Shown: positions 1 to 29,863 of the stretch, piece after piece
Layout: each line of letters opens with the position of its first letter
Position numbering within the stretch: the stretch's first letter is position 1
Assembly: GCF_000014265.1 (NCBI RefSeq)
Contig: NC_008312.1
Span: forward strand, 7,260,001 to 7,292,000
DNA from: Trichodesmium erythraeum IMS101
GTDB lineage: Bacteria; Cyanobacteriota; Cyanobacteriia; Cyanobacteriales; Microcoleaceae
Length of the DNA: 32,000 bases
Reading direction: 5' to 3'
Made by a program: the position numbers and the translations under genes
Notes under the pieces: model-generated
Seen by the model: only the letters and a program-made list of their open reading frames with translations
The model's database searches: none
What the model was told of the DNA's origin: nothing

Positions 1-103
1 AGATTCTTTTCTGTAACTTGAAGACCCGACGCTCAACTTTTGTCCAATTAATCTCACGCCACTCTTTCCATTCCCCCGTAGTCTTTAAACTCGTATTAGA
101 CAT
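1..103 (-). CDS. Group II intron-encoded reverse transcriptase/maturase of intron I3, N-terminal 34 codons only (ORF runs off the left edge)
   Basis: Reverse complement reads ATG (103-101) MSNTSLKTTGEWKEWREINWTKVERRVFKLQKRI and stays open to position 1. The INW-KVE--VFKLQK-I motif matches the N-terminus of the intron ORF at 5339 and resembles that of 1363-2832. Confidence 0.7.
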   Translation of the reverse strand, partial: MSNTSLKTTGEWKEWREINWTKVERRVFKLQKRI

Positions 104-919
104 TTATATTACTTACTCAAACTCTACATTCCAAATCACCGTGTGTCCGTCTGCATATCCCATTAAATTAACAAAGGGCTTTTGCTTGTGACACAATCCC
201 TCCCAATCAAACATACGGTTAGCACCTACTTGAATTTACTATCTCAGTTATCAGTTATCAGTACCTCAGTTGATTTTTGTTATTCCCTTAAAATGCTTTA
301 TTATATAAACATCTTTCTTAAAAAAACTTGGGCAAAATAGACAAGTTATCTTTAAGTCTTTGAGAGACTTTTTCAGGAGAACAAAGTGCATTGAAAAATA
401 CATTTTTTTGATAAATTAAGTAGTTTTGCAGCAACCTGCCAACCTACTATACTCTTTCTCCCTTTTGCGCTGCTCCCTTTTGCATTGCTCCCCACAATAT
501 TTTCAGAAGTTTCTGATAACAGATAACTTCAAATAGGAAGCTTAAAAGCTTATTTTTTACTCAAGTATTGCACTAAAAAAAAGAATTATAGCACTTCCCA
601 GAGTAATTGAGATTCTCGCGCCTCTCAAATATTGTCATAACAAGAATGTACGGGGTAATGGCCAGAAAGCCCCTACTTTTTAATTGTGACTTCTGTGGCT
701 GAGTGTTAATAAATAGCTATTCAAGAGTTTTTCATGGGTTACTTCGTTCCAAATGACCTTATCTATATACCTTTAGGATGATGCTTTGCGCCGGGTTTAG
801 GGGAAGTGCTTGTTAGTCGAACCAAATCTCGCTAACTCCCTATCCTTTGCCTTTTGGCTCCAGTGTCACAGCTTATTTCACTGGTTGAACGTAACGACGC
901 TTCACTCACATCTTCGCAC
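1..919 (-). mobile_element. Group II intron I3, 5' part (5' splice site to start of its RT ORF); remainder lies outside the window
   Basis: Minus-strand GTGCGAAGATGTGAGTG starts at 919 (plus-strand CGCAC 915-919) and resembles the I1 5' end GTGCGATGTGAAAA. The RT ORF begins 816 nt downstream at 103. The pre-ORF segment GATATGCAGACGGACAC resembles I2 GCAGATGCAGACGTACTC. Confidence 0.6.
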
Positions 920-1009
920 TATAGCTATCCAATGGGTATTTTGCTCGATGGGAACCAACCTAAGCTGTCAGTTGTACCACCTTTTCACCCCGCTTTACGG
1001 ATTGGTTGG
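920..1009 (-). mobile_element. Outer group II intron A, 90-nt domain-I segment lying between inserted introns I1 and I3
   Basis: Minus-strand CCAACCAATCCGTAAAGCGGGGTGAAAAGG...CATCGAGCAAAATACCCATTGG aligns with I2 positions about 4910-5000 (CATCAATCCCTGAAGC..TTAAAAGCGGGAAAATACC...CGCGAGCAAAGGTTGACAAGTGG). It continues the homology that is interrupted at 3469. Confidence 0.55.
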
Positions 1010-1046
1010 GTAGGAGAAAGTACGTCGCCGTATCTCTCCCCCCTAA

Positions 1047-1081
1047 GAACCGGACTTGACAGTTGTCCCATCATCCGGCTC
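1047..1081 (-). ncRNA. Group II intron domain V of I1
   Basis: Minus strand reads GAGCCGGATGATGGGACAACTGTCAAGTCCGGTTC. The lower stem GAGCCGGAT/GTCCGGTTC is almost identical to the I2 domain V. The apical loop is a pentaloop GACAA rather than a GNRA tetraloop, and the bulge is AA. Confidence 0.8.
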
Positions 1082-1362
1082 AAGCCTCTTGCCTTACAGA
1101 ACATTTGCCTGTGTATATATATTTGTGACAACATTTATACAAGTGGACTAGGCCATAAATTTTGTCCATGCCACCGTCTTTCACCCTTATTTTTTTGATG
1201 GGTGTGCAGTTTCTCTCAGTTAAATAAGTGTTCACCACTCATAGGAACATTTCCAGCTCTGAGCTTAGGTAATTTTGTAGTATTTTGAACCTTGACCCGA
1301 TGAGCTTTGTCATATTTTGTATAACGTTATTTCAAATATTTGGTTAAAGAGGGGTTCTCCGG

Positions 1363-2832
1363 CTATGCCGTGCCTTTAATTTTTACATGACGTTGAATGG
1401 GAACTTTTCCTAGTCGGCAGATGGCTATTGTTTCCTTCTTGCCATACCTATTGCTTATGTTTGTTGCGAAAGTCCACTTGTTTCCGTTGACGGTTTTGAA
1501 GTATTTCTTTCGCACCCATTCCTTACCTTTTCCTTTTTGTTTCCCCACTCGCTTCGAGTGTCTTCTTAATGACCATTGCCAGAGTGATTTCCAAATTTCG
1601 TGGTCAACATAGGAAAATATTCGTTGACTTACACCATGTCTGTAGTAGTTCCCCCATCCTCTAATAATTGAATTAAGGTTTGCAATTACTGCTTCTTGTG
1701 TACTGGTCGGGTGTGCTTTGAGCCACCCCCGAATTAGTGTGAGAAATTCCTTAACTTTCTCTTTTTGTGGAACTATGAAGCAGCTACCGTTGAACTGGCG
1801 GACATTGAACCCTAAAAAGTTGAATCCTTGTTCAATATGAACTAAGTTGGTTTTGTCCTTATTAAGTTCTAATCCTCTTTCTGATAGCCATTTTTCAATA
1901 GTGGGGATTATCGCTTTGATGTCTTCCTCACTTCGAGCGGTGATTATGAAGTCATCAGCGTATCGGATAAATCCGTATTTATCTAACTTCTTTTTCTTGG
2001 TGTATTCCTCATCCGTTGTCGGCCTTGTACATTGATAGGTTTTCACTGTTTTGTACCTAGCTAACAATCTTTCCATCCCATCAAAGGCTATGTTGGCAAG
2101 TAAGGGGCTAATTATGCCTCTTGAAGAAGTCCCCCCCTCTGTCTTGTGGAAAACTTCGGCTTCTAAATACCCTGCTTTTAGCCATTGCTTGATTAACTCT
2201 CTACCAGGGATTTCTCCGATAGCTTTGAGGATGTATTCATGGGTAATATTGTCAAAATCTTGTTTAATATCGACATCTAGTATCCATGTATCCTTTCCTT
2301 TTTGGAGTCTAATCCAGAATTGTTCAAGAGGATCATGGCAACTTCTACCTGGGTGGAATCCGTAGGAATTTGTCTCGAATTCTGCGTCCCAAATTGGTTC
2401 TAACCCATTCTTAACAACTGCCTGAGCAACTCGGTTTTTGACTGTGGGGATGCCTAGTGGACCTTGTTGACGGTTTGCCTTGGGGATGTATACCCTTTTA
2501 GCTGGTTTGGCTTGCCACAGCCTATATGTCAGCATTTCTTTGACAAGTTTGACTTTTTCTACAGAAGTCTTTGCCGTCTGAGCGTCTCTCCCCATCCTTC
2601 GTATCCCTTGGTTTTCTTGAGTCACCCTTCGCACTGACAGTAGTAGGTTGGAGTAACTGCGTAGCATCAGTTTCATTAGGCTGCGAACCTTATTCCACTG
2701 ACTGTTCTGTTTAGCACGATAAATTCTCCGTCTTAGGTTCCTAACACACTTTTTAATGGTCTTCCAATTAATGTCCAACCACTCTTTTAATGGTTCCTTA
2801 GCTCCGATTTCATTACTGAATCTATCTTTCAC
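1363..2832 (-). CDS. Group II intron reverse transcriptase/maturase (RT + X/thumb domains, no HNH endonuclease domain), GTG start
   Basis: 489-aa ORF with RRVTQEN, PLGIPTVKNRVAQ, SYGFHPGRSCHD, ISPLLANIA, IRYADDFII and IRGWGNYY motifs. It ends at HVKIKGTA, where the I2 protein continues into a DNA-binding/HNH region. Some RT motifs are diverged (GKKTAGIDG becomes GIRRMGRDA; GTPQGG becomes GTSSRG). Confidence 0.9.
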   Translation of the reverse strand: MKDRFSNEIGAKEPLKEWLDINWKTIKKCVRNLRRRIYRAKQNSQWNKVRSLMKLMLRSYSNLLLSVRRVTQENQGIRRMGRDAQTAKTSVEKVKLVKEMLTYRLWQAKPAKRVYIPKANRQQGPLGIPTVKNRVAQAVVKNGLEPIWDAEFETNSYGFHPGRSCHDPLEQFWIRLQKGKDTWILDVDIKQDFDNITHEYILKAIGEIPGRELIKQWLKAGYLEAEVFHKTEGGTSSRGIISPLLANIAFDGMERLLARYKTVKTYQCTRPTTDEEYTKKKKLDKYGFIRYADDFIITARSEEDIKAIIPTIEKWLSERGLELNKDKTNLVHIEQGFNFLGFNVRQFNGSCFIVPQKEKVKEFLTLIRGWLKAHPTSTQEAVIANLNSIIRGWGNYYRHGVSQRIFSYVDHEIWKSLWQWSLRRHSKRVGKQKGKGKEWVRKKYFKTVNGNKWTFATNISNRYGKKETIAICRLGKVPIQRHVKIKGTA

Positions 2833-3468
2833 TTCGGCTCAGTTCCTTCTTTGAAGTTTTATCGTTTGAGACCTGGTGGAAGTCTGCCATCTTTCAATGT
2901 AGGGCAAATATTTTAGCCCTCAGGCTTCTTGAAGGGTACCCCTATCTCCTGTATTACACAGAAGCATTTGCTTTCTCCACCTTCCTTTACCCTCTAGATA
3001 ATTCCGTCTTCTTTACAGTTGACCTACTCAAGTTTTGGACCTTCACCTGAGAACCTATAGGGCTTACTGTGTCCCGTACATCTGAACTTCAATTGAGTTA
3101 GGATTCCATCTCTATCCCGGCAGGAGTTTAGTTCTCTCATTATGACCAGCCATACTGTCATAACCAACCTGCTTACCTTTTGGTCAGAGTGTATCAACCT
3201 GGTTTCACTCTTAGAGCGAATTACGGGACTATCAATAATGGTTTACTTTCGTTAATCCTTCTCAATCTTCCCCTTGTCTTCCTTACAATTCAGGTTTTGT
3301 AGCTTGGACTTTTGTGCCTTGCATTCCGTCAGTTTCATTACTTACTGTTGACGTAGGCAGAGTCAGTGACTCCTTTACATGGGGACAAGGGGAGAGAATC
3401 CCTTGGAGGAGACAGCTCCTCATTCTTAGCGTGTTGTACACGTTGGATATACGATTTTCACATCGCAC

Positions 3469-3621
3469 ATGGCTAGTCGCTACCGTAGGGGTGATGCTGT
3501 CAACCCTGCACCTGGGCAGGAGGAATCACACCTCCAAGGTCATTTAGTTATAAGGCTAATGGCCTTACTCTGCTCACATCTTGGTACTATGACCCTAACT
3601 TTTAGCAGAAACGAATCGCAC
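3469..3621 (-). mobile_element. Outer group II intron A, 5' terminal 153 nt
   Basis: Minus-strand GTGCGATTCGTTTCTGC starts at 3621 (compare I2 GTGCGACTCGTTGGTC). Further matches to I2 are ATAACTAAATGACC vs ATAAATGACC and GGTTGACAGCATCACCCCTACGGTAGCGACT vs GGTTGACAGCATAAACCACAGGGTAGCGACT. Confidence 0.6.
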
Positions 3622-3862
3622 TTTGGTTCCCTTCACGACGGACTCTAGATACAACCCAGTTCCGCCATACCCAATGATCTCCACGACTAGTAACTGCACT
3701 GGCATTGATATCCATTAAATCTGCCAGTTCAGAGCTAGTGATTAGATAGCCTTTATTGGCCACTTCATCGGCTATATGTAGGGTTTCAATTAAGTTACGC
3801 AGTTGCCCAACCCTCTGCTCCCTAGGCATATTTTCGACTAATTCGTTAGTTGTTTCATTCAT
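3622..3862 (-). CDS. 5' exon (80 codons + 1 nt) of a hypothetical small protein with an HTH-like segment, interrupted by intron A
   Basis: ORF-track ORF 3602-3862. The last 6 codons plus stop fall inside the GTGCG-initiated intron sequence, so the apparent stop is probably intronic. A YLITSSELADLMDINASAVTSRG stretch looks helix-turn-helix-like. The protein family was not recognised. Confidence 0.45.
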
Positions 3863-4747: not shown

Positions 4748-5800
4748 GTGCGACTCGTTGGTCACTAAACCAGGAAACTGGGTATAAATGACCGTCCTAA
4801 ATCAATACATGGGATACCCCGATTTAGAACAACTCTTATTACCTTGATGGTGAAATTCCATCCACCTTGTTGTTAGGTTGACAGCATAAACCACAGGGTA
4901 GCGACTGAACATCAATCCCTGAAGCTGGTTTAAAAGCGGGAAAATACCAGTTACCGAGAAACGATACCGCGAGCAAAGGTTGACAAGTGGACGAACAGGA
5001 AGGTAATCAAACTCCCGTCATACAGGACCATTCCAAAGGTAGCTGTGGAATGTAGGACGAAAGTCAGAGGAATAATGGGCATAAATATCCATTGGTTTAT
5101 GTCAACAACCATTCAAGGCCTCCGGGAGAGTTTACCCCACTAAATCAATCGTAATAAAGGAATAAGGGAACGAGGAAACCTCTTTAAGACACCTAAGTAA
5201 ATAGGTCGAAAACTTAGGAAGCCATTCAAGGTCAATCTACACAAAAGTTGTAGGTCTTAAAGGGAATAGGATTGAGTAAGAAGCATTGCAGATGCAGACG
5301 TACTCACTGTTGAACGTAATATAGAGTAATGATTAGTCATGAACAAAGCTGAAATACTAAAAAGAAAATTGGACAACCCAAGGCCCTTTTCAAGTGTGGC
5401 ATGGGACGCTTACGATATACCTAGCCAAGCGTGTGTTAATCCAAACCTAAAATGGAAAGACATTAACTGGAAAAAGGTAGAAAAGTATGTGTTTAAGTTA
5501 CAAAAGTTAATCTATAGAGCATCCAGCCGTGGCGAAATCCGCAAAATGCGTAAATATCAAAAACTTCTGACCAAAAGTTATTATGCAAGGTTGCTAGCTG
5601 TCAGGCGCGTTACCCAGGACAACCAGGGAAAGAAAACTGCTGGTATAGATGGCATAAAAAGCCTTCCCCCAATGCAAAGATTTAATACCAATTTCCTAAA
5701 GTCCGACTACACATAATGCTTCAAGAATAAAATCATATCCTGTACAAGAAGCAATATCTTTTTGACTAAATCCAGTTAATATATTTCTCAGGATTCTGCG

Positions 5801-6768
5801 TCAGAAATCTAAGGAATCGAAAACTCGATTTTTCAAGAATTTTTTCACCTCTTTCCACAGTCTTTCAATGGGATTAACTTCGGGACAATAAGGAGGTTGA
5901 AATAATAAAATGATGTGATCAGGGATAGATAAATCATTCCCTAGATGCCCTCGCCCGTTATCTAGTTGAATAATATGAATCTCTTCAGGATATGTTTGAG
6001 AAAAAAGCTCTAAAAATCTTTCAAAGCAAGGAGTATCTAGATGACTAAATTCATAAAAAAAGGAATCTCCTGTTTTTGGTTCTACTAAACCATAAAGCCA
6101 TAGATATTTAAATAGCCATTGATATAAACCAATGGGCTTAACACCGCAAGCAGTAATGACTTTACCTGTTATAGTTTTTAATCCAATTCTAGTCTCGTCT
6201 TGACACCAATAGCGAATTGGCAGTTGATTTTCCGAATATTTATTAATTAACTTAATTTTCTCTTCTAGTTGAGATGAGAGTTTTTTTTAAAGTTTTCTTG
6301 AGCTTCTTTATTTTGTTTTATGTGATTTGGACGTGGAACTTTTAATTTACTTTTTAATTTAAATCTGACTAATTGATGAACTGTTCGATAAGACAGCTCG
6401 ATGTCAAAACAAGTCGTTAACCACTGTTGAATTTCACCATAGCTTTGGAAACCTTCCGGGTTTTGCAATTCTGCTTCTAATTTCTCGATTACATTTGGTG
6501 GAATTGAACTTGGCCTCCCTCCTAGATTTTTCTTTGGTTCTAGTAAAAGATTCAGTCCACCTGTACGATATTTCCCTAACCATTTTTGTACTGTGACTCG
6601 ATTGCGTCCTAACATTATCGCAATTTCTTTTACTGTTTCTACTGTTTGAGTTTTCAACCAGTAAATAGTTTGAAGTCTTTCCTTTTCTTGAGCTGTACTC
6701 GCACTTTTTAAAAGTTTTTTGAGAGTTTCTACCGATTCATTTATCTCAATTTTTACTACTCCTGACAT
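5801..6768 (-). CDS. IS630-family transposase (orfA HTH part 6768-6265; DDE part in the -1 frame down to 5801)
   Basis: Mirror image of 8678-9645 (coordinate map y = 15446 - x). See that entry. Confidence 0.7.
6280..6288 (-). promoter_or_regulatory. A-run slippery site, candidate programmed -1 frameshift (copy 1)
   Basis: Counterpart of 9158-9166 in copy 2. Confidence 0.45.
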
Positions 6769-8336
6769 GGGGACATTTTCTATAATAGGTTACTTCTAAA
6801 AGTGTAGCTTAAGTTTATGAAATTAGTATAACTTGGTAGAAATGTTAAGGTCACGACATCTTAAAGCAAGCCCAACCCGTAGAGTCTGGATACCAAAACC
6901 AGGGAGAGAAGAAAAACGCCCATTAGGCATACCAACTATGTACGACAGGGCACTTCAAGCACTGGTAAAGCTAGGTAGGTCACCAGAATGGGAGGCGCTT
7001 TTCGAACCTAATAGTTATGGTCTTTTCCGGAGGTCAACACATGATGCTATCGCAGCAATCTATGTCAGTATTAACCACAAACCAAAATATGTTTTAGATG
7101 CTGACATATCCAAGTGTTTTGACCGAATTAATCATGATGCACTGTTGAGAAAAATAGGTCGAACACCTTACAGACGATTAATCAAGCAATGGTTAAAATC
7201 TGGAGTATTCGACAACAAACAATTCTCAAACACTGTGGAAGGTACACCACAGGGAGGGGTAATATCACCCTTAAAGAGCAAACATCGCCCTACACGGGGA
7301 AAGAAAAATGCCTAAAAAATTACGCAGAAACTCTTCGAGGGAACAAACGTAATAATAAACATGCATTATCCTTAATACGATATGCTGATGACTTTGTAAT
7401 CCTACACAAAGACATCAAAGTATTGTTACAAGCAAAAACCGTAATACAGGAATGGTTAAATCATGTAGGATTAGAACTAAAACCAGAAAAAACTAAAATT
7501 GCCCACACCTTGGAAGAATATGACGGCAACAAACCCGGATTTGACTTCCTAGGATTCACAATAAGGCAATGGAAAGTTAAGACAACCAAACAAGGATTCA
7601 AAACACTGATTAAACCGTCTTCCAAGAGCATAAAAACTCATTATCGGAAGCTGGCGGATATATGTGATAAACACAAAAACGCCCCTACAAAAGCTTTAAT
7701 AGCTAAACTTAATCCGGTGATTAGAGGATGGGCCAACTACTTCTCCACTATAATCAGTAAAGAAACCTTTTCAAAGCTAGATTACCTACTCTGGAGAAGG
7801 TTAGGTCGATGGACAAGTAGGAGGCATCCAAAATAAGTCAGCCAAATGGGTCAAGAAGAAGTACTTCCCTCGCTGCAAAGTCACCAGAAACTGGATACTT
7901 AACGACGGCGAGTATATACTTAACCAACACTCAGACGTTGCTATAGTAAGACACGTCAAGGTTAAAGGTAATAAATCCCCATTAGACGGTGATTGGACTT
8001 ATTGGAGCAGTAGAATAGGAAAACATCCAGGCATAAGGAAAGAAGTTACAACGCTGTTAAAACGGCAAAAGAATAAATGCGCATTTTGTGGACTAACCTT
8101 TAGATTAACCGACCTTATGGAAATCGACCATATAAAACCAAGGTCTGAAGGCGGTGATAACACAACTAAAAACAAACAACTGTTACACCGACATTGTCAC
8201 GATACTAAAACTGCTTGATTATAATAAAACATACACAAAACCTAAGTTACAGGACTTACCTGATGAATACCTATGGGTAGATGATATGTTAATTCTAACA
8301 CAGGGATGTACCTATGAAAAAGGACGTTTAGGAGAG

Positions 8337-8369
8337 GAGCCGGATGAGGTGAAAGTCTCACGTCCGGTT
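8337..8369 (+). ncRNA. Group II intron domain V of I2
   Basis: GAGCCGGATGAGGTGAAAGTCTCACGTCCGGTT has canonical architecture: AGC triad position, GAAA tetraloop and a 2-nt AC bulge. Confidence 0.85.
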
Positions 8370-8407
8370 TTGAAGACGAGTCGGGTAAGGTAACTTACCT
8401 GGCGAAT

Positions 8408-8525
8408 GTTTAACTATACAGATGATTGGGGAGGGCCTAAACGAGCCCTACCCCCAACAGTAGAGGATATTATTGGTGAAAACCAAACCCACCATAAGGA
8501 TGGAACTAACGGAATTGTTGGGTAA
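8408..8525 (+). pseudogene. IS1-family-like transposase remnant, 3' part (downstream exon of I2)
   Basis: Translation is ..YTDDWGGPKRALPPTVEDIIGENQTHHKDGTNGIVG* with stop at 8523-8525. The TDDWGxYxxxLP...H..GK..T..IE pattern of IS1-type InsB C-termini is recognisable but decayed. Confidence 0.45.
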
Positions 8526-8677
8526 CTTCTAGGTCTCAAGAAAAGGAAATACTTCAAGTTATTTACTGGTTAAAAACTAAAGTAGTAGAAACAGTCAAAG
8601 AAATTTTGATTATGTTATACTAATTTCATAAACTTAAGCTACACTTTTAGAAGTAACCTATTATAGAAAATGTCCCC

Positions 8678-9645
8678 ATGTCAGGAGTAGTAAAAATTGA
8701 GATAAATGAATCGGTAGAAACTCTCAAAAAACTTTTAAAAAGTGCGAGTACAGCTCAAGAAAAGGAAAGACTTCAAACTATTTACTGGTTGAAAACTCAA
8801 ACAGTAGAAACAGTAAAAGAAATTGCGATAATGTTAGGACGCAATCGAGTCACAGTACAAAAATGGTTAGGGAAATATCGTACAGGTGGACTGAATCTTT
8901 TACTAGAACCAAAGAAAAATCTAGGAGGGAGGCCAAGTTCAATTCCACCAAATGTAATCGAGAAATTAGAAGCAGAATTGCAAAACCCGGAAGGTTTCCA
9001 AAGCTATGGTGAAATTCAACAGTGGTTAACGACTTGTTTTGACATCGAGCTGTCTTATCGAACAGTTCATCAATTAGTCAGATTTAAATTAAAAAGTAAA
9101 TTAAAAGTTCCACGTCCAAATCACATAAAACAAAATAAAGAAGCTCAAGAAAACTTTAAAAAAAACTCTCATCTCAACTAGAAGAGAAAATTAAGTTAAT
9201 TAATAAATATTCGGAAAATCAACTGCCAATTCGCTATTGGTGTCAAGACGAGACTAGAATTGGATTAAAAACTATAACAGGTAAAGTCATTACTGCTTGC
9301 GGTGTTAAGCCCATTGGTTTATATCAATGGCTATTTAAATATCTATGGCTTTATGGTTTAGTAGAACCAAAAACAGGAGATTCCTTTTTTTATGAATTTA
9401 GTCATCTAGATACTCCTTGCTTTGAAAGATTTTTAGAGCTTTTTTCTCAAACATATCCTGAAGAGATTCATATTATTCAACTAGATAACGGGCGAGGGCA
9501 TCTAGGGAATGATTTATCTATCCCTGATCACATCATTTTATTATTTCAACCTCCTTATTGTCCCGAAGTTAATCCCATTGAAAGACTGTGGAAAGAGGTG
9601 AAAAAATTCTTGAAAAATCGAGTTTTCGATTCCTTAGATTTCTGA
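8678..9645 (+). CDS. IS630-family transposase, orfA (8678-9181) plus DDE domain in the -1 frame (open from 9160 to TGA 9643-9645)
   Basis: orfA is a 167-aa HTH region. The -1 frame reads ..LEEKIKLINKYSENQLPIRYWCQDETRIGLK...IIQLDNGRGH...FQPPYCPEVNPIERLWKEVKK, which supplies the D, D, E residues. The frames overlap at the A8 run. After the TGA the same frame stays open for 34 more codons (RRILRNILTGFSQKDIASCTGYDFILEAL..). Confidence 0.75.
9158..9166 (+). promoter_or_regulatory. A-run slippery site (A AAA AAC within TTTAAAAAAAAC), candidate programmed -1 ribosomal frameshift of the IS630 transposase
   Basis: orfA (codon starts at positions 2 mod 3) stops at 9179-9181. The DDE frame (1 mod 3) is closed by a TAA at 9157-9159 and opens exactly at 9160, so only a shift within this run can fuse the two halves. 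Confidence 0.5.
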
Positions 9646-10270
9646 CGCAGAATCCTGAGAAATATATTAACTGGATTTAGTCAAAAAGATATTGCTTCTT
9701 GTACAGGATATGATTTTATTCTTGAAGCATTATGTGTAGTCGGACTTTAGGAAATTGGTATTAGGACACAATGGGGTCACAGTACAAAAATGGTTAAGTA
9801 TATAATATAGTGATTTACTAAAGTAAATTAAAATCCTGCGTCCAAAGCCTCACGGGATGAAAAGGGAGTTAAAAGCCATATTTAGAAGGGAATTTGCCTT
9901 CGGGGACTGAAGAATATTTCAATAAAAAAAACGCTTATTGAGAAATATTGGGGTGTAGTGCGTTCAAAGAGCGAACCAACTACATCCCCTAATTGTATTT
10001 AATTATTATTCAAGCTGTATCAGAGAATAATATTATGAAAAAATTCACATTAATTAATTGATTTTTAATTAAAAATTACTGTCTAATTAACCACTGTATT
10101 TATCCCTTTGACTCCCCTTCAATAATATAGTAATTAATGAGGATTAAGGCTCGTAAAATTTTCTACTAATTTTCAGATAAAATAATCATTTCTTGCCCAA
10201 TAAATCCTAGATAATCCTACAAAAAAAAACTACTGTATCTTCTTTCTTTTCTACTTTTTTCATTAGTTTA

Positions 10271-11391: not shown

Positions 11392-12410
11392 TTTTATTGA
11401 TTTTTATTTGTAATTACTAAACCTTTTTTATCATATTTTTAACTATTTCCAAAACTTTTTAAATGAATAAATTATAAACTCAAAGTGGGAGGTGTAGTGC
11501 GAGGGCAGAACCCTGGCGCTAAACCCCAACATTTCTCAATAATAGTTTTCTTTTAATTAAATTATTCCTCAGTCCCCGAAGGCAAATCTATTTCTATATA
11601 TAGCTTTCAACTAGCTTGTCGCCCCGTGAGGTCCAAAGCATATAAAACAAGATAAAGGAGCTAAAGAAAACTTAAAAAAAACTGTCATCTCAAATAGAAG
11701 AGAAAATTAATTTAATTAATTAATTAATATTATTTTCCAATAATGTTCCAGAAAAATTAAAACAGAAGCGACCCATTCCCTATTGGTGTGAAGATTAAAC
11801 TAGAATTGGATTAAAACTATAACAGTTAATAAAATCATAAAGCCCTTATGGAGTAAAACCAATAGGACTCTATCAATGGTTATTTTACCCATCCCTAATG
11901 CTCCTTTCCTACCGAGGCGATAGGGGTAGATGTAGTGTAGTTGAACCCAAAATAGGATACTCCTTTTTTGATGAATTTAGTCATATAGATAACCCTTGAT
12001 TTGAAATATTTTTGAGAGCTTTTTGCAGAGAAATATCCTCTATAAAATCATATAATTTAGTTAGATAATTGATCAGTAGCACATCAAGGTTAAATTTCCT
12101 CTATTTGTGAGCAAATAATTTTATTATTTCAACTTCCTTATTGTTCTCAATTTAATCAAGCATAAAAGTTGTGAAAAGAAGTGAAAAATGGGAGGGAAAA
12201 TCACATTTTTGATTCATTTTATTTCTTAAGAATAATCGTAACAAATATATTAGGTAGATTTAGTTAAAAAGATATCGCTTCTGTAACCAGGTATAATTTT
12301 CGACACATAGCATTATGTGTAGTTAGATTTTAGGAAATTGGTATAAAATATCTGCTAAGGTAGCAGCACAAATGTGAAAATTTATTCCACCAAGGAACTA
12401 AGGTTCGGTA

Positions 12411-28881: not shown

Positions 28882-29863
28882 TAGACCTAAAGTTAGAATT
28901 TATGTTAACATTAGTGCTTAATCTCTTAATCTCACTAAACCACATATTGTTAAAATTACTTTTTCATAATTACTCTCTTTTAATCTGAATCTTTCTCGTG
29001 CCACTTTCAATATTTTTATCAGTCTTATTACATGTTCTACAAATATTCTTTTTTGAGCTTTTTTTTGATTCTCTTTCTTTACTTTGTATGACATTTTATG
29101 GTTTCTTTTTTTTCTTTGGCGTGTCAATTTTTTTCCCACCTTGATCACCTGTATCTCCTTGAAATCTTTGTTATTCATCAAACTTTTTTTGTGGTTTTTT
29201 GAATAAAATTATATCACTCTTTGGACCTCTTTCTCCTACTATTACATCAACTATTTCTTTTCCATTATCTGTGATTATTATTTGATTTTTTAACCTATGA
29301 CTTTTTTGCTTTCCTGAGTAATATTTTTTCTGCTTTTCATCATTTTTTGGCCTGAATATATCCTGTTCTGTACTATCAACTATCAATTCTATTTCTGTTA
29401 AAGCTTCTTTTATCCATAAATATTCGTTTTCTTTTCCCGAGAATTCCTCTAGTAAACTAGATGGTAATAATTCCCTCAAAATATTGATCCAAAGCCTGAA
29501 AAATATTATTTGCTGTTGATTCACTAACTCCAAATATTGCTCCTAACAGTTGAAATGTTGGTACATGATGCAAATAATATAATGTCAAAATTATCTCTTC
29601 CGCCTTGCCTAAATACTTTTTTCTGACTCCTCCTGCCTTAATTAATCTTTTTTCTTCTTTCTTCGATCGCCTGTCTTTTTTTGTCTTCAACTTTTTGAGC
29701 ATTTTCTATTAATTTTATTAGTTGTTTATCTGTAATACCAATAATCCTTTTTGTATATGGATGGATGATTATAAATATATTCTAATACATTATTCATTTG
29801 GGGACAGCATATATATAATTGGGCACTACAATTTTACCTTAATTTCTATTTTGGAGAGGTCTA
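28882..29863 (-). mobile_element. IS5-family-like element (DDE_Tnp_4 / Harbinger-type transposase), about 0.98 kb
   Basis: Imperfect TIRs: TAGACCTAAAGTTAGAATTTATGTTAACATTAGTGC (from 28882) against the reverse complement of the right end, TAGACCTCTCCAAAATAGAAATTAAGGTAAAATTGTAGTGC (to 29863). Exact ends and TSD are uncertain (CTAG / CTAA is possible). Confidence 0.65.
28918..29702 (-). pseudogene. IS5-family (DDE_Tnp_4) transposase split over three frames
   Basis: ORFs 29702-29457 (HTH part: LTLYYLHHVPTFQLLGAIFGVSESTANNIF), 29533-29171 (YYSGKQKSHRLKNQIIITDNGKEIVDVIVGERGPKSD) and 29181-28918 (QKRIFVEHVIRLIKILKVARERFR). Each successive frame is +1 relative to the previous one. The second junction sits on an A8 run (29172-29185 region). 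Confidence 0.65.

Follow-up and report, generated by a model that had tools for sequence, protein, structure and literature searches.

A group II twintron interrupts Tery_4732

We analysed 32,000 nucleotides (nt) of Trichodesmium erythraeum IMS101 (CP000393, 7,260,001-7,292,000; hereafter the window). Window positions are genome coordinates minus 7,260,000, and negative positions continue this numbering to the left. To read beyond the left edge we used two public contigs, L005 and L006, which match the window without a difference over 3,862 nt. At this edge lies the minus-strand gene Tery_4732, which encodes an 89-amino-acid (aa) conserved cyanobacterial protein. The gene is interrupted by a group II intron, Tr.e.I7, and a second group II intron, Tr.e.I8, is nested in domain I of the first (Table 1). 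A sequence-only reading of the window had proposed a further intron, starting at position 919. We conclude with near certainty that the region is a two-component twintron and that no third intron begins at 919. The twintron itself is already known; it was described in 2015 and has been characterised experimentally (Pfreundt & Hess 2015, Sci Rep 5:16829, PMC4649490).

The annotated minus-strand open reading frame (ORF) 3862-3602 ends ...REGNQ-SAIRFC*, and the 86-aa protein it specifies is encoded on many public contigs. After 80 codons and 1 nt the frame is cut by GTGCGATTCGTT, which starts at 3621; the last exon base is 3622. The GUGYG consensus of group II 5' ends is present at this exon boundary as GTGCGATTCG. 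The extended 9-mer GTGCGAYKC occurs only twice in the window, against 0.08 expected: here and at the start (4748) of I2, a separate intron on the opposite strand that serves as our comparator. The 153 nt that follow the exon (3621-3469) align with the 5' end of I2, and positions 79-177 of the host intron match I2 positions 91-189 with 72% identity (E=5e-13). Both a break in the gene at 3621 and I2-like sequence behind it had been claimed from the sequence, and both are borne out. SAIRFC, the annotated C-terminal tail (3621-3602), comes from the intron, and PMC4649490 likewise describes these last six residues as mis-annotated intron sequence.

The 3' exon is supplied by TTCTCTGGCAATTAGAAAGGGTAGATTAA. 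It begins after the outer intron end ...GTTTAAC|TTCTCTGG, where domain V/VI abuts the exon, about 255 nt past the stop of the outer intron's own ORF. Joining the exons across the interrupted codon 81 yields ...REGNQ-ILWQLERVD*, 89 aa long as in PMC4649490, and the spliced frame is kept in nine lineages. Pfam and NCBIfam scans gave no family match for the spliced protein. Hence, the frame across the junction was judged from the published alignments and from its conservation in the nine lineages. The published splice sites of the host intron lie after 7263622r and after 7258498r, and the inner 3' site lies after 7261005r (PMC4649490). In window numbering (3622, -1502 and 1005) all coincide with sequence features found here. 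Since the splice sites and the SAIRFC tail agree with PMC4649490, the locus is the published Tery_4732 twintron. The claim of an intron nested within an intron in a small gene thus holds, and agrees to the base with that paper.

The inner intron divides outer domain I

The inner intron opens at 3468 with GTGCGATG, again in accord with GUGYG. As had been read from the sequence, it is 2.46 kb long with a reverse transcriptase (RT) ORF and domains V/VI. However, its end moves from near 1010 to 1005. We set this boundary because the Rfam domain V/VI match covers 1083-1005, and because empty sites in Dapis and Okeania and published reverse transcription PCR (RT-PCR) give the same end. Outer sequence restarts at 1004, not at the previously proposed 1009. 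The resulting join, AGCCAT|CAATCC, resembles GAACAT|CAATCC in I2, where the site homologous to the inner-intron target is unoccupied. The inner protein scores 322 bits against NCBIfam TIGR04416, above the cut-off of 300. It lacks an endonuclease domain because a premature stop shortens the ORF; PMC4649490 likewise describes it as truncated relative to a 596-aa metagenome version. The inner intron is found at the same site in Trichodesmium MAG_R03 and MAG_R04.

Insertion of Tr.e.I8 splits the 5' strands of the long-range helices of outer domain I from their 3' strands, leaving the partners 2.46 kb apart. TTCGTT (3615-3610) pairs with AACGAA (748-743), and the I2 counterpart, CTCGTT/AACGAG, carries a compensatory change. 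Similarly, AAATGACCTT (3545-3536) pairs with AAGGTCATTT (760-751) in a perfect 10-bp helix; a helix of 10 bp was reached in 38 of 2,000 shuffles. Corresponding helices are present in I2 and in a more distant intron, that of cyanobacterium ESFC-1. An RNAalifold consensus fold of the Trichodesmium, Dapis, Okeania, I2 and ESFC-1 sequences has the same domain I architecture throughout. Homologues with an empty site indicate that excising the inner intron restores a contiguous outer domain I. The joined domain is 425 nt long in every host-type lineage without extra insertions and 433 nt long in I2. Its second part is uninterrupted, with 96-97% identity, in 8/8 related loci.

Exon recognition was traced through exon-binding site 1 (EBS1) and its partner, intron-binding site 1 (IBS1). 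The outer EBS1, TTTGGTT (826-820), forms the loop of a hairpin at 836-812 and is complementary to the exon end AACCAAA. Conserved in nine lineages, it is found 332 nt from the start of the joined intron. In I2 the corresponding element, CCATTG, is complementary to that intron's own exon end, CAATGG, and lies 343 nt from the I2 start.

Position 919 lies within the outer intron

The sequence-only reading held that an outer intron, A, had been invaded twice: by I1 (3468..1005, our inner intron) and, from 919, by an RT-encoding intron I3, with the rest of A to the left of I3. We consider such a double twintron extremely improbable. It was suggested by GTGCGAAG at 919, which agrees with the group II 5' consensus, by a weakening of the strong I2 similarity just ahead of this position, and by an RT-like ORF that begins at 103, 816 nt downstream. 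Both the GTGCG and the ORF are there as read, but 919 has no other mark of an intron start. The window contains 15 copies of GTGCG where 9.15 would be expected, and two of these fall within the inner ORF; the position homologous to 919 is not GTGCG in I2 or ESFC-1. An intron starting at 919 would follow the flank GCTATA. There is no TATAGC in 914-104 to serve as its EBS1, and the sole EBS1-type hairpin in that interval matches the gene exon.

Six independent tests, the first a count of ribozyme 3' domains, speak against a third intron. A permissive Rfam scan (E<=1), which began at the 5' exon and extended past the 3' exon, found exactly two domain V/VI elements. Three introns need three. The outer element (L001 15292-15369, left of the window) scores 59.9 bits with RF00029 and 64.9 bits with RF04357. 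Domains V/VI and a 3' exon of A had been expected beyond a separate end of I3. Instead, this sole remaining domain V/VI directly follows the ORF that begins at 103 and abuts the exon; the distance from that ORF's stop to the proven 3' exon is only about 255 nt. Similarly, the EBS1 of A (TTTGGT) had been predicted to the left of I3, but was found inside it, as were the domain I helices that A requires.

Relatives and transcripts agree with this. In Dapis and Okeania the whole intron measures about 2.27 kb, the size of one ORF-bearing intron, with no room for two ribozymes. Several lineages lack I1, but none lacks the proposed I3: all of the 8 related loci are contiguous over 920/919. The published 3,030-nt intermediate and linear host intron are also consistent with one outer intron.

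Similarity to I2 had been thought to stop at 920. It does not. Further colinear blocks cover the EBS1 hairpin and the helices that close domain I; others follow in domains III/IV, where about 163-93 aligns with I2 positions 538-610, in the ORF and in domains V/VI. The best matches of the outer 5' piece, of the ORF from 103 and of the final domains V/VI are all in I2, in colinear order. We conclude that similarity fades near 920 because peripheral stems of domain I have diverged, and not because an element boundary lies there. The supposed I3 is the rest of outer domain I, an enlarged domain II, domains III/IV, the outer ORF and domains V/VI. A second RT-encoding intron in domain I therefore finds no support in the domain V/VI count, in the closure of domain I or in relatives, and two splicing steps suffice where at least three had been invoked. 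Separately, we asked whether A might be a defunct 5' piece joined to an independent intron that starts at 919. This was rejected, as a domain I spanning 919 is common to I2 and ESFC-1.

Table 1. Features of the Tery_4732 twintron and of the comparator intron, in window numbering
Feature	Position	Strand	Details
Exon 1 of Tery_4732	3622..3862	minus	80 codons + 1 nt; IBS1 AACCAAA at 3628-3622
Outer intron Tr.e.I7, subgroup IIB2	3621 to -1502	minus	2,660 nt without its guest
Outer domain I, first 153 nt	3469..3621	minus	5' GTGCGATTCG; 5' strands of two long-range helices
Inner intron Tr.e.I8, subgroup IIB1	3468..1005	minus	Complete group II intron, 2,464 nt, in outer domain I
Inner EBS1 hairpin	3140..3163	minus	Loop ATGGCT 3153-3148, complementary to 5' flank AGCCAT 3474-3469
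Inner ORF	1363..2832	minus	489 aa; RVT_N, RVT_1 and GIIM; YADD present
Inner domains V and VI	1005..1083	minus	Rfam RF00029, 48.9 bits (gathering 40); L001 12780-12858
Outer domain I, second part	740..1004	minus	GTGCGAAG 919-912; EBS1 hairpin; 3' strands of closing helices
Outer domain II	229..727	minus	Basal stem CTCTTGAAT 727-719 / ATTCAAG 235-229
Apparent dispersed repeat module in domain II	290..520, core 420-304	minus	Copies with 77-86% identity in metagenome contigs
Outer domain III and 5' part of domain IV	104..228	minus	Conserved in all relatives
Outer ORF, first 34 codons	1..103	minus	449 aa in total; continues to about -1247, then domains V/VI
I2, comparator outside the twintron; degenerate paralogue of the outer intron	4748..8414	plus	ORF frameshifted and split by an insertion sequence

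Relatives carry the outer intron alone

We scanned the outer ORF against one genome per species. Eight orthologous loci were returned, and IMS101 itself was not among the returns. Dapis (L010, L012) and Okeania (L011) have the same gene interrupted at the same codon by the outer intron only (2,266-2,284 nt). Each of these introns has the 5' piece, GTGCGAAG and the sequence around it (96-97% identical), together with a single ORF and a single domain V/VI. In six loci (L009-L012, L014, L015) the inner-intron site is empty; the counterpart of 3469 is followed directly by that of 1004, with 94-97% identity. The outer-only loci lie at L010 5028-7594, L011 3504-6068 and L012 5020-7602, and also on L009, L014 and L015, with introns of 2.27-2.9 kb.

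PMC4649490 states that the gene is free of introns outside Trichodesmium. The later genomes of Dapis and Okeania change that statement. Because an ORF without RT motifs occupies an identical site in three genera of Microcoleaceae, the outer intron was probably inherited vertically, and the inner intron would have arrived later, within Trichodesmium. Synteny gives no support: the proteins that flank the gene in T. erythraeum (Tab2-like, PmbA/TldD and an upstream 78-aa ORF) had no match in the flanks of L009-L018.

The outer protein lacks reverse transcriptase catalytic motifs

The outer ORF (5381-6730 on L005) matches RVT_N (2.9e-25), RVT_1 (8.2e-17) and GIIM (2.5e-19), and has no endonuclease domain. 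Against TIGR04416 it scores 168.8, below the cut-off of 300. In all nine lineages the catalytic YADD motif reads YGGN or YAGN. The RPLGIP and GTPQGG blocks, found in the ESFC-1 homologue and the inner intron protein, are deleted in the same lineages. Despite this, the ORF is intact in every lineage (437-455 aa), with pairwise ratios of nonsynonymous to synonymous substitution rates (dN/dS) of 0.30-0.47. As judged by these ratios, it is under purifying selection despite loss of the RT catalytic motifs. An intact, constrained ORF without RT motifs suggests a maturase-only protein, which is probably what the outer intron encodes.

We also weighed whether the locus might be a dead relic, a gene broken by decaying mobile elements that no longer splice. 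Both ORFs are shorter than their metagenome versions (PMC4649490), the outer ORF has lost the motifs described above, and the neighbouring paralogue I2 is clearly degenerate. Nevertheless, correctly spliced mRNA and intermediates appear in RT-PCR and northern blots (PMC4649490). The constraint on the outer ORF, the spliced frame conserved in nine lineages and the 96-97% conservation of domain I also speak for a working system. We give the relic explanation hardly any credence.

Domain II of the outer intron is enlarged and variable

With the inner intron removed, 1,054 nt separate the outer 5' end from its ORF, compared to 591 nt in I2. This excess, which misled the sequence-only reading, resides in domain II, described as 'atypically large' (536 nt) in PMC4649490. 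Its distal part, about 715-262, is hypervariable. In T. erythraeum and MAG_R03 the variable stretch measures about 450 nt. Its counterpart in Trichodesmium MAG_R04 has 13 nt, and those of the Dapis/Okeania-type loci span 77-187 nt.

Part of the enlarged domain recurs elsewhere. Four metagenome contigs that are otherwise unrelated (L019 107-222, L020 5635-5744, L021 3-111, L022 4643-4728) carry a 115-nt core (420-304) with 77-86% identity, recovered as four matches to one exact 29-mer. Weaker similarity around the core extends to about 230 nt (about 520-290). In the two contigs with readable flanks, the core lies outside genes with recognisable products. The module looks like a dispersed repeat, and no Rfam family matches it. 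BLAST of the domain II expansion against about 300 kb of related sequence returned no copy beyond the orthologous loci.

These data bear on a proposal that would complement the two-intron structure, namely that the outer intron was hit again in domain II (about 520-290), not by an intron but by a small non-coding dispersed repeat, which would have contributed to the 0.5-kb domain II of T. erythraeum and MAG_R03. Both the length differences between lineages and the recurrence of the core in unrelated contigs are in its favour. However, we identified no terminal inverted repeats or target-site duplication for the module, and the dispersal rests on four matches to a single 29-mer with no further copy in the related sequence searched. 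The variation in length would be accounted for equally well by a tolerant peripheral stem that expanded and lost sequence step by step. We therefore hold a repeat insertion to be a tentative explanation, with chances somewhat below even.

Some smaller features were seen in and around these stems. In the Dapis/Okeania-type loci (L009-L015) the variable part of domain II is bordered by heptamer tandem repeats, with (AGTCAGG)n arrays 5' of it and (CTGATAA)n arrays 3' of it. The corresponding window stretch is 245-262 on the minus strand. The two arrays can pair (GUCAG/CUGAU), and may build the extended domain II stem. A different element of 100-260 nt occupies a stem of outer domain I in three relatives (L009 at about 5095-5355, L014 at about 1468-1570, L015 at about 5166-5274), at the equivalent of window position 3589 or thereabouts. 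Its ends are inverted (TAGCACTA...TAGTGCTA), and short tandem repeats lie between them. From its sequence it looks like a miniature inverted-repeat transposable element (MITE), and it is absent from T. erythraeum. Contig L022, which carries the repeat module, also encodes the small RNA Yfr1 (Rfam RF01116, 52.5 bits; 3048-3117, minus strand), and is thereby confirmed as cyanobacterial.

I2 and neighbouring mobile elements

The comparator intron has decayed. Its ORF survives as frameshifted pieces (5339-5716, 6833-7315 and 7189-7836), with an HNH-like C-terminus still visible. Homology with the outer intron places the end of I2 at 8414, 16 nt past the Rfam match. The ORF is split by an insertion sequence (IS) of 1,150 bp (5683-6832), the transposase of which has an N-terminus that matches HTH_32/HTH_23/HTH_33. 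A second copy, 100% identical and inverted, lies at 8614-9763, 200 bp past the end of I2. A relative with 70% identity is found at 11631-12355. Further away, on the minus strand at 29171-29702, two overlapping short ORFs with HTH_Tnp_4 and DDE_Tnp_4 pieces are a frameshifted remnant of an IS5-type transposase, making the window still denser in remains of mobile elements.

Discussion

Our analysis concerns the anatomy of the locus, its boundaries and pairings, and the comparison with empty sites; sequential splicing in vivo was demonstrated by others. In that work, RT-PCR and northern blots detected mature mRNA, linear introns and an intermediate of 3,030 nt from which only the inner intron was missing (PMC4649490). 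The inner intron is excised in vivo as circles and linear forms, and the inner-less intermediate accumulates. Removal of the outer intron then yields an mRNA of about 370 nt (PMC4649490).

The pairings described here fit these products as follows. Briefly, the inner intron would have retrohomed into outer domain I, guided by pairing of its EBS1 (ATGGCT) with AGCCAT. In a first splicing step it leaves, joining 3469 to 1004 and restoring the 425-nt domain I. In a second step the outer EBS1, TTTGGTT, pairs with IBS1, AACCAAA, and 3622 is joined to -1503. This junction creates the Ile codon of ...NQ-ILWQLERVD. The inner intron presumably must leave before the outer intron can splice, an order given as 'most probably' in PMC4649490. 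The product of the outer ORF is likely to act as a maturase.

Some points weigh against the two-intron reading. The inner 5' site is given in PMC4649490 as 'after 7263468r', one base away from the boundary 3469|3468 that we see in the sequence. Inspection by eye found no convincing EBS2 in the outer intron, and our analysis identified neither an EBS2/IBS2 pairing nor an EBS3. A stem-less EBS2 and an EBS3 have been reported for it (PMC4649490), and EBS/IBS annotations were not found in the supplement text of that paper. The covariation evidence is based on few divergent sequences, I2 and ESFC-1. In addition, the MAFFT alignment of domain I misplaced the 3' ends of these two sequences, and the helices are accordingly reported individually and through the RNAalifold fold. 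Finally, no lariat or circle of the outer intron was detected in PMC4649490.

The twintron is real, rare and sequentially spliced, but it has been known since 2015, and the additional layer of nesting claimed for it does not exist. Okeania and Dapis offer natural 'before invasion' versions of the outer intron. These are modestly useful and extend a known system in a minor way. Together, relatives with the outer intron alone and a selected protein without RT activity motifs make both the order of events and the dependence of outer splicing on inner removal directly testable.

A broader picture can be drawn from the comparison of genera, and we lean slightly towards it. The outer intron would be a fixed, immobile, organelle-like element that pre-dates the split of Trichodesmium, Okeania and Dapis and is kept through its maturase-only protein. 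The RT-competent inner intron would have come later, in Trichodesmium only, and peripheral stems (domain II and, in some lineages, a stem of domain I) would act as landing pads for short dispersed repeats and MITE-like elements. If this is true, the published statement that the gene has no intron outside Trichodesmium is corrected, and there is a natural series with and without a guest intron in which to study how a twintron is tolerated.

Several known systems bear comparison with this locus. Maturase-only intron proteins exist, for example chloroplast MatK. Like such proteins, the outer ORF retains RVT_N, a degenerate RT palm and a maturase (GIIM/X) domain. It has likewise lost YADD and other RT motifs, and is under purifying selection. 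Unlike MatK, it is bacterial and still within its own intron, and its role as a maturase is predicted from sequence. The chloroplast of Euglena gracilis has complex twintrons with several internal introns, and cases of a single outer intron invaded more than once are known from it. Hence, the idea of a double invasion is not unprecedented in principle. These twintrons also consist of an intron within an intron and need ordered splicing. However, they are organellar and mostly without ORFs, whereas the Tery_4732 locus has one internal intron.

Twintrons of Thermosynechococcus elongatus (cited in PMC4649490) likewise place one group II intron within another in an intron-rich cyanobacterium. None of them is flanked by ORF-encoding exons (PMC4649490), whereas the Tery_4732 twintron lies in a gene for a conserved protein and is spliced in vivo. 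According to PMC4649490, no other bacterial twintron is known from within a protein-coding gene. Plant mitochondrial twintrons and 'zombie' twintrons (PMC7049729) similarly combine nested group II introns with decay of components; their setting, unlike that of Tery_4732, is organellar. The closest comparison is with Tr.e.I7/Tr.e.I8 as published (PMC4649490), which is the same locus base for base. The host gene, the splice sites, the two ORF-bearing introns and the placement of the inner intron in outer domain I are the same, and there is no difference in object. To that account we add that Dapis and Okeania carry the outer intron alone in their orthologue, that the outer ORF has no RT catalytic motifs, and that the expanded domain II holds what looks like a dispersed repeat.

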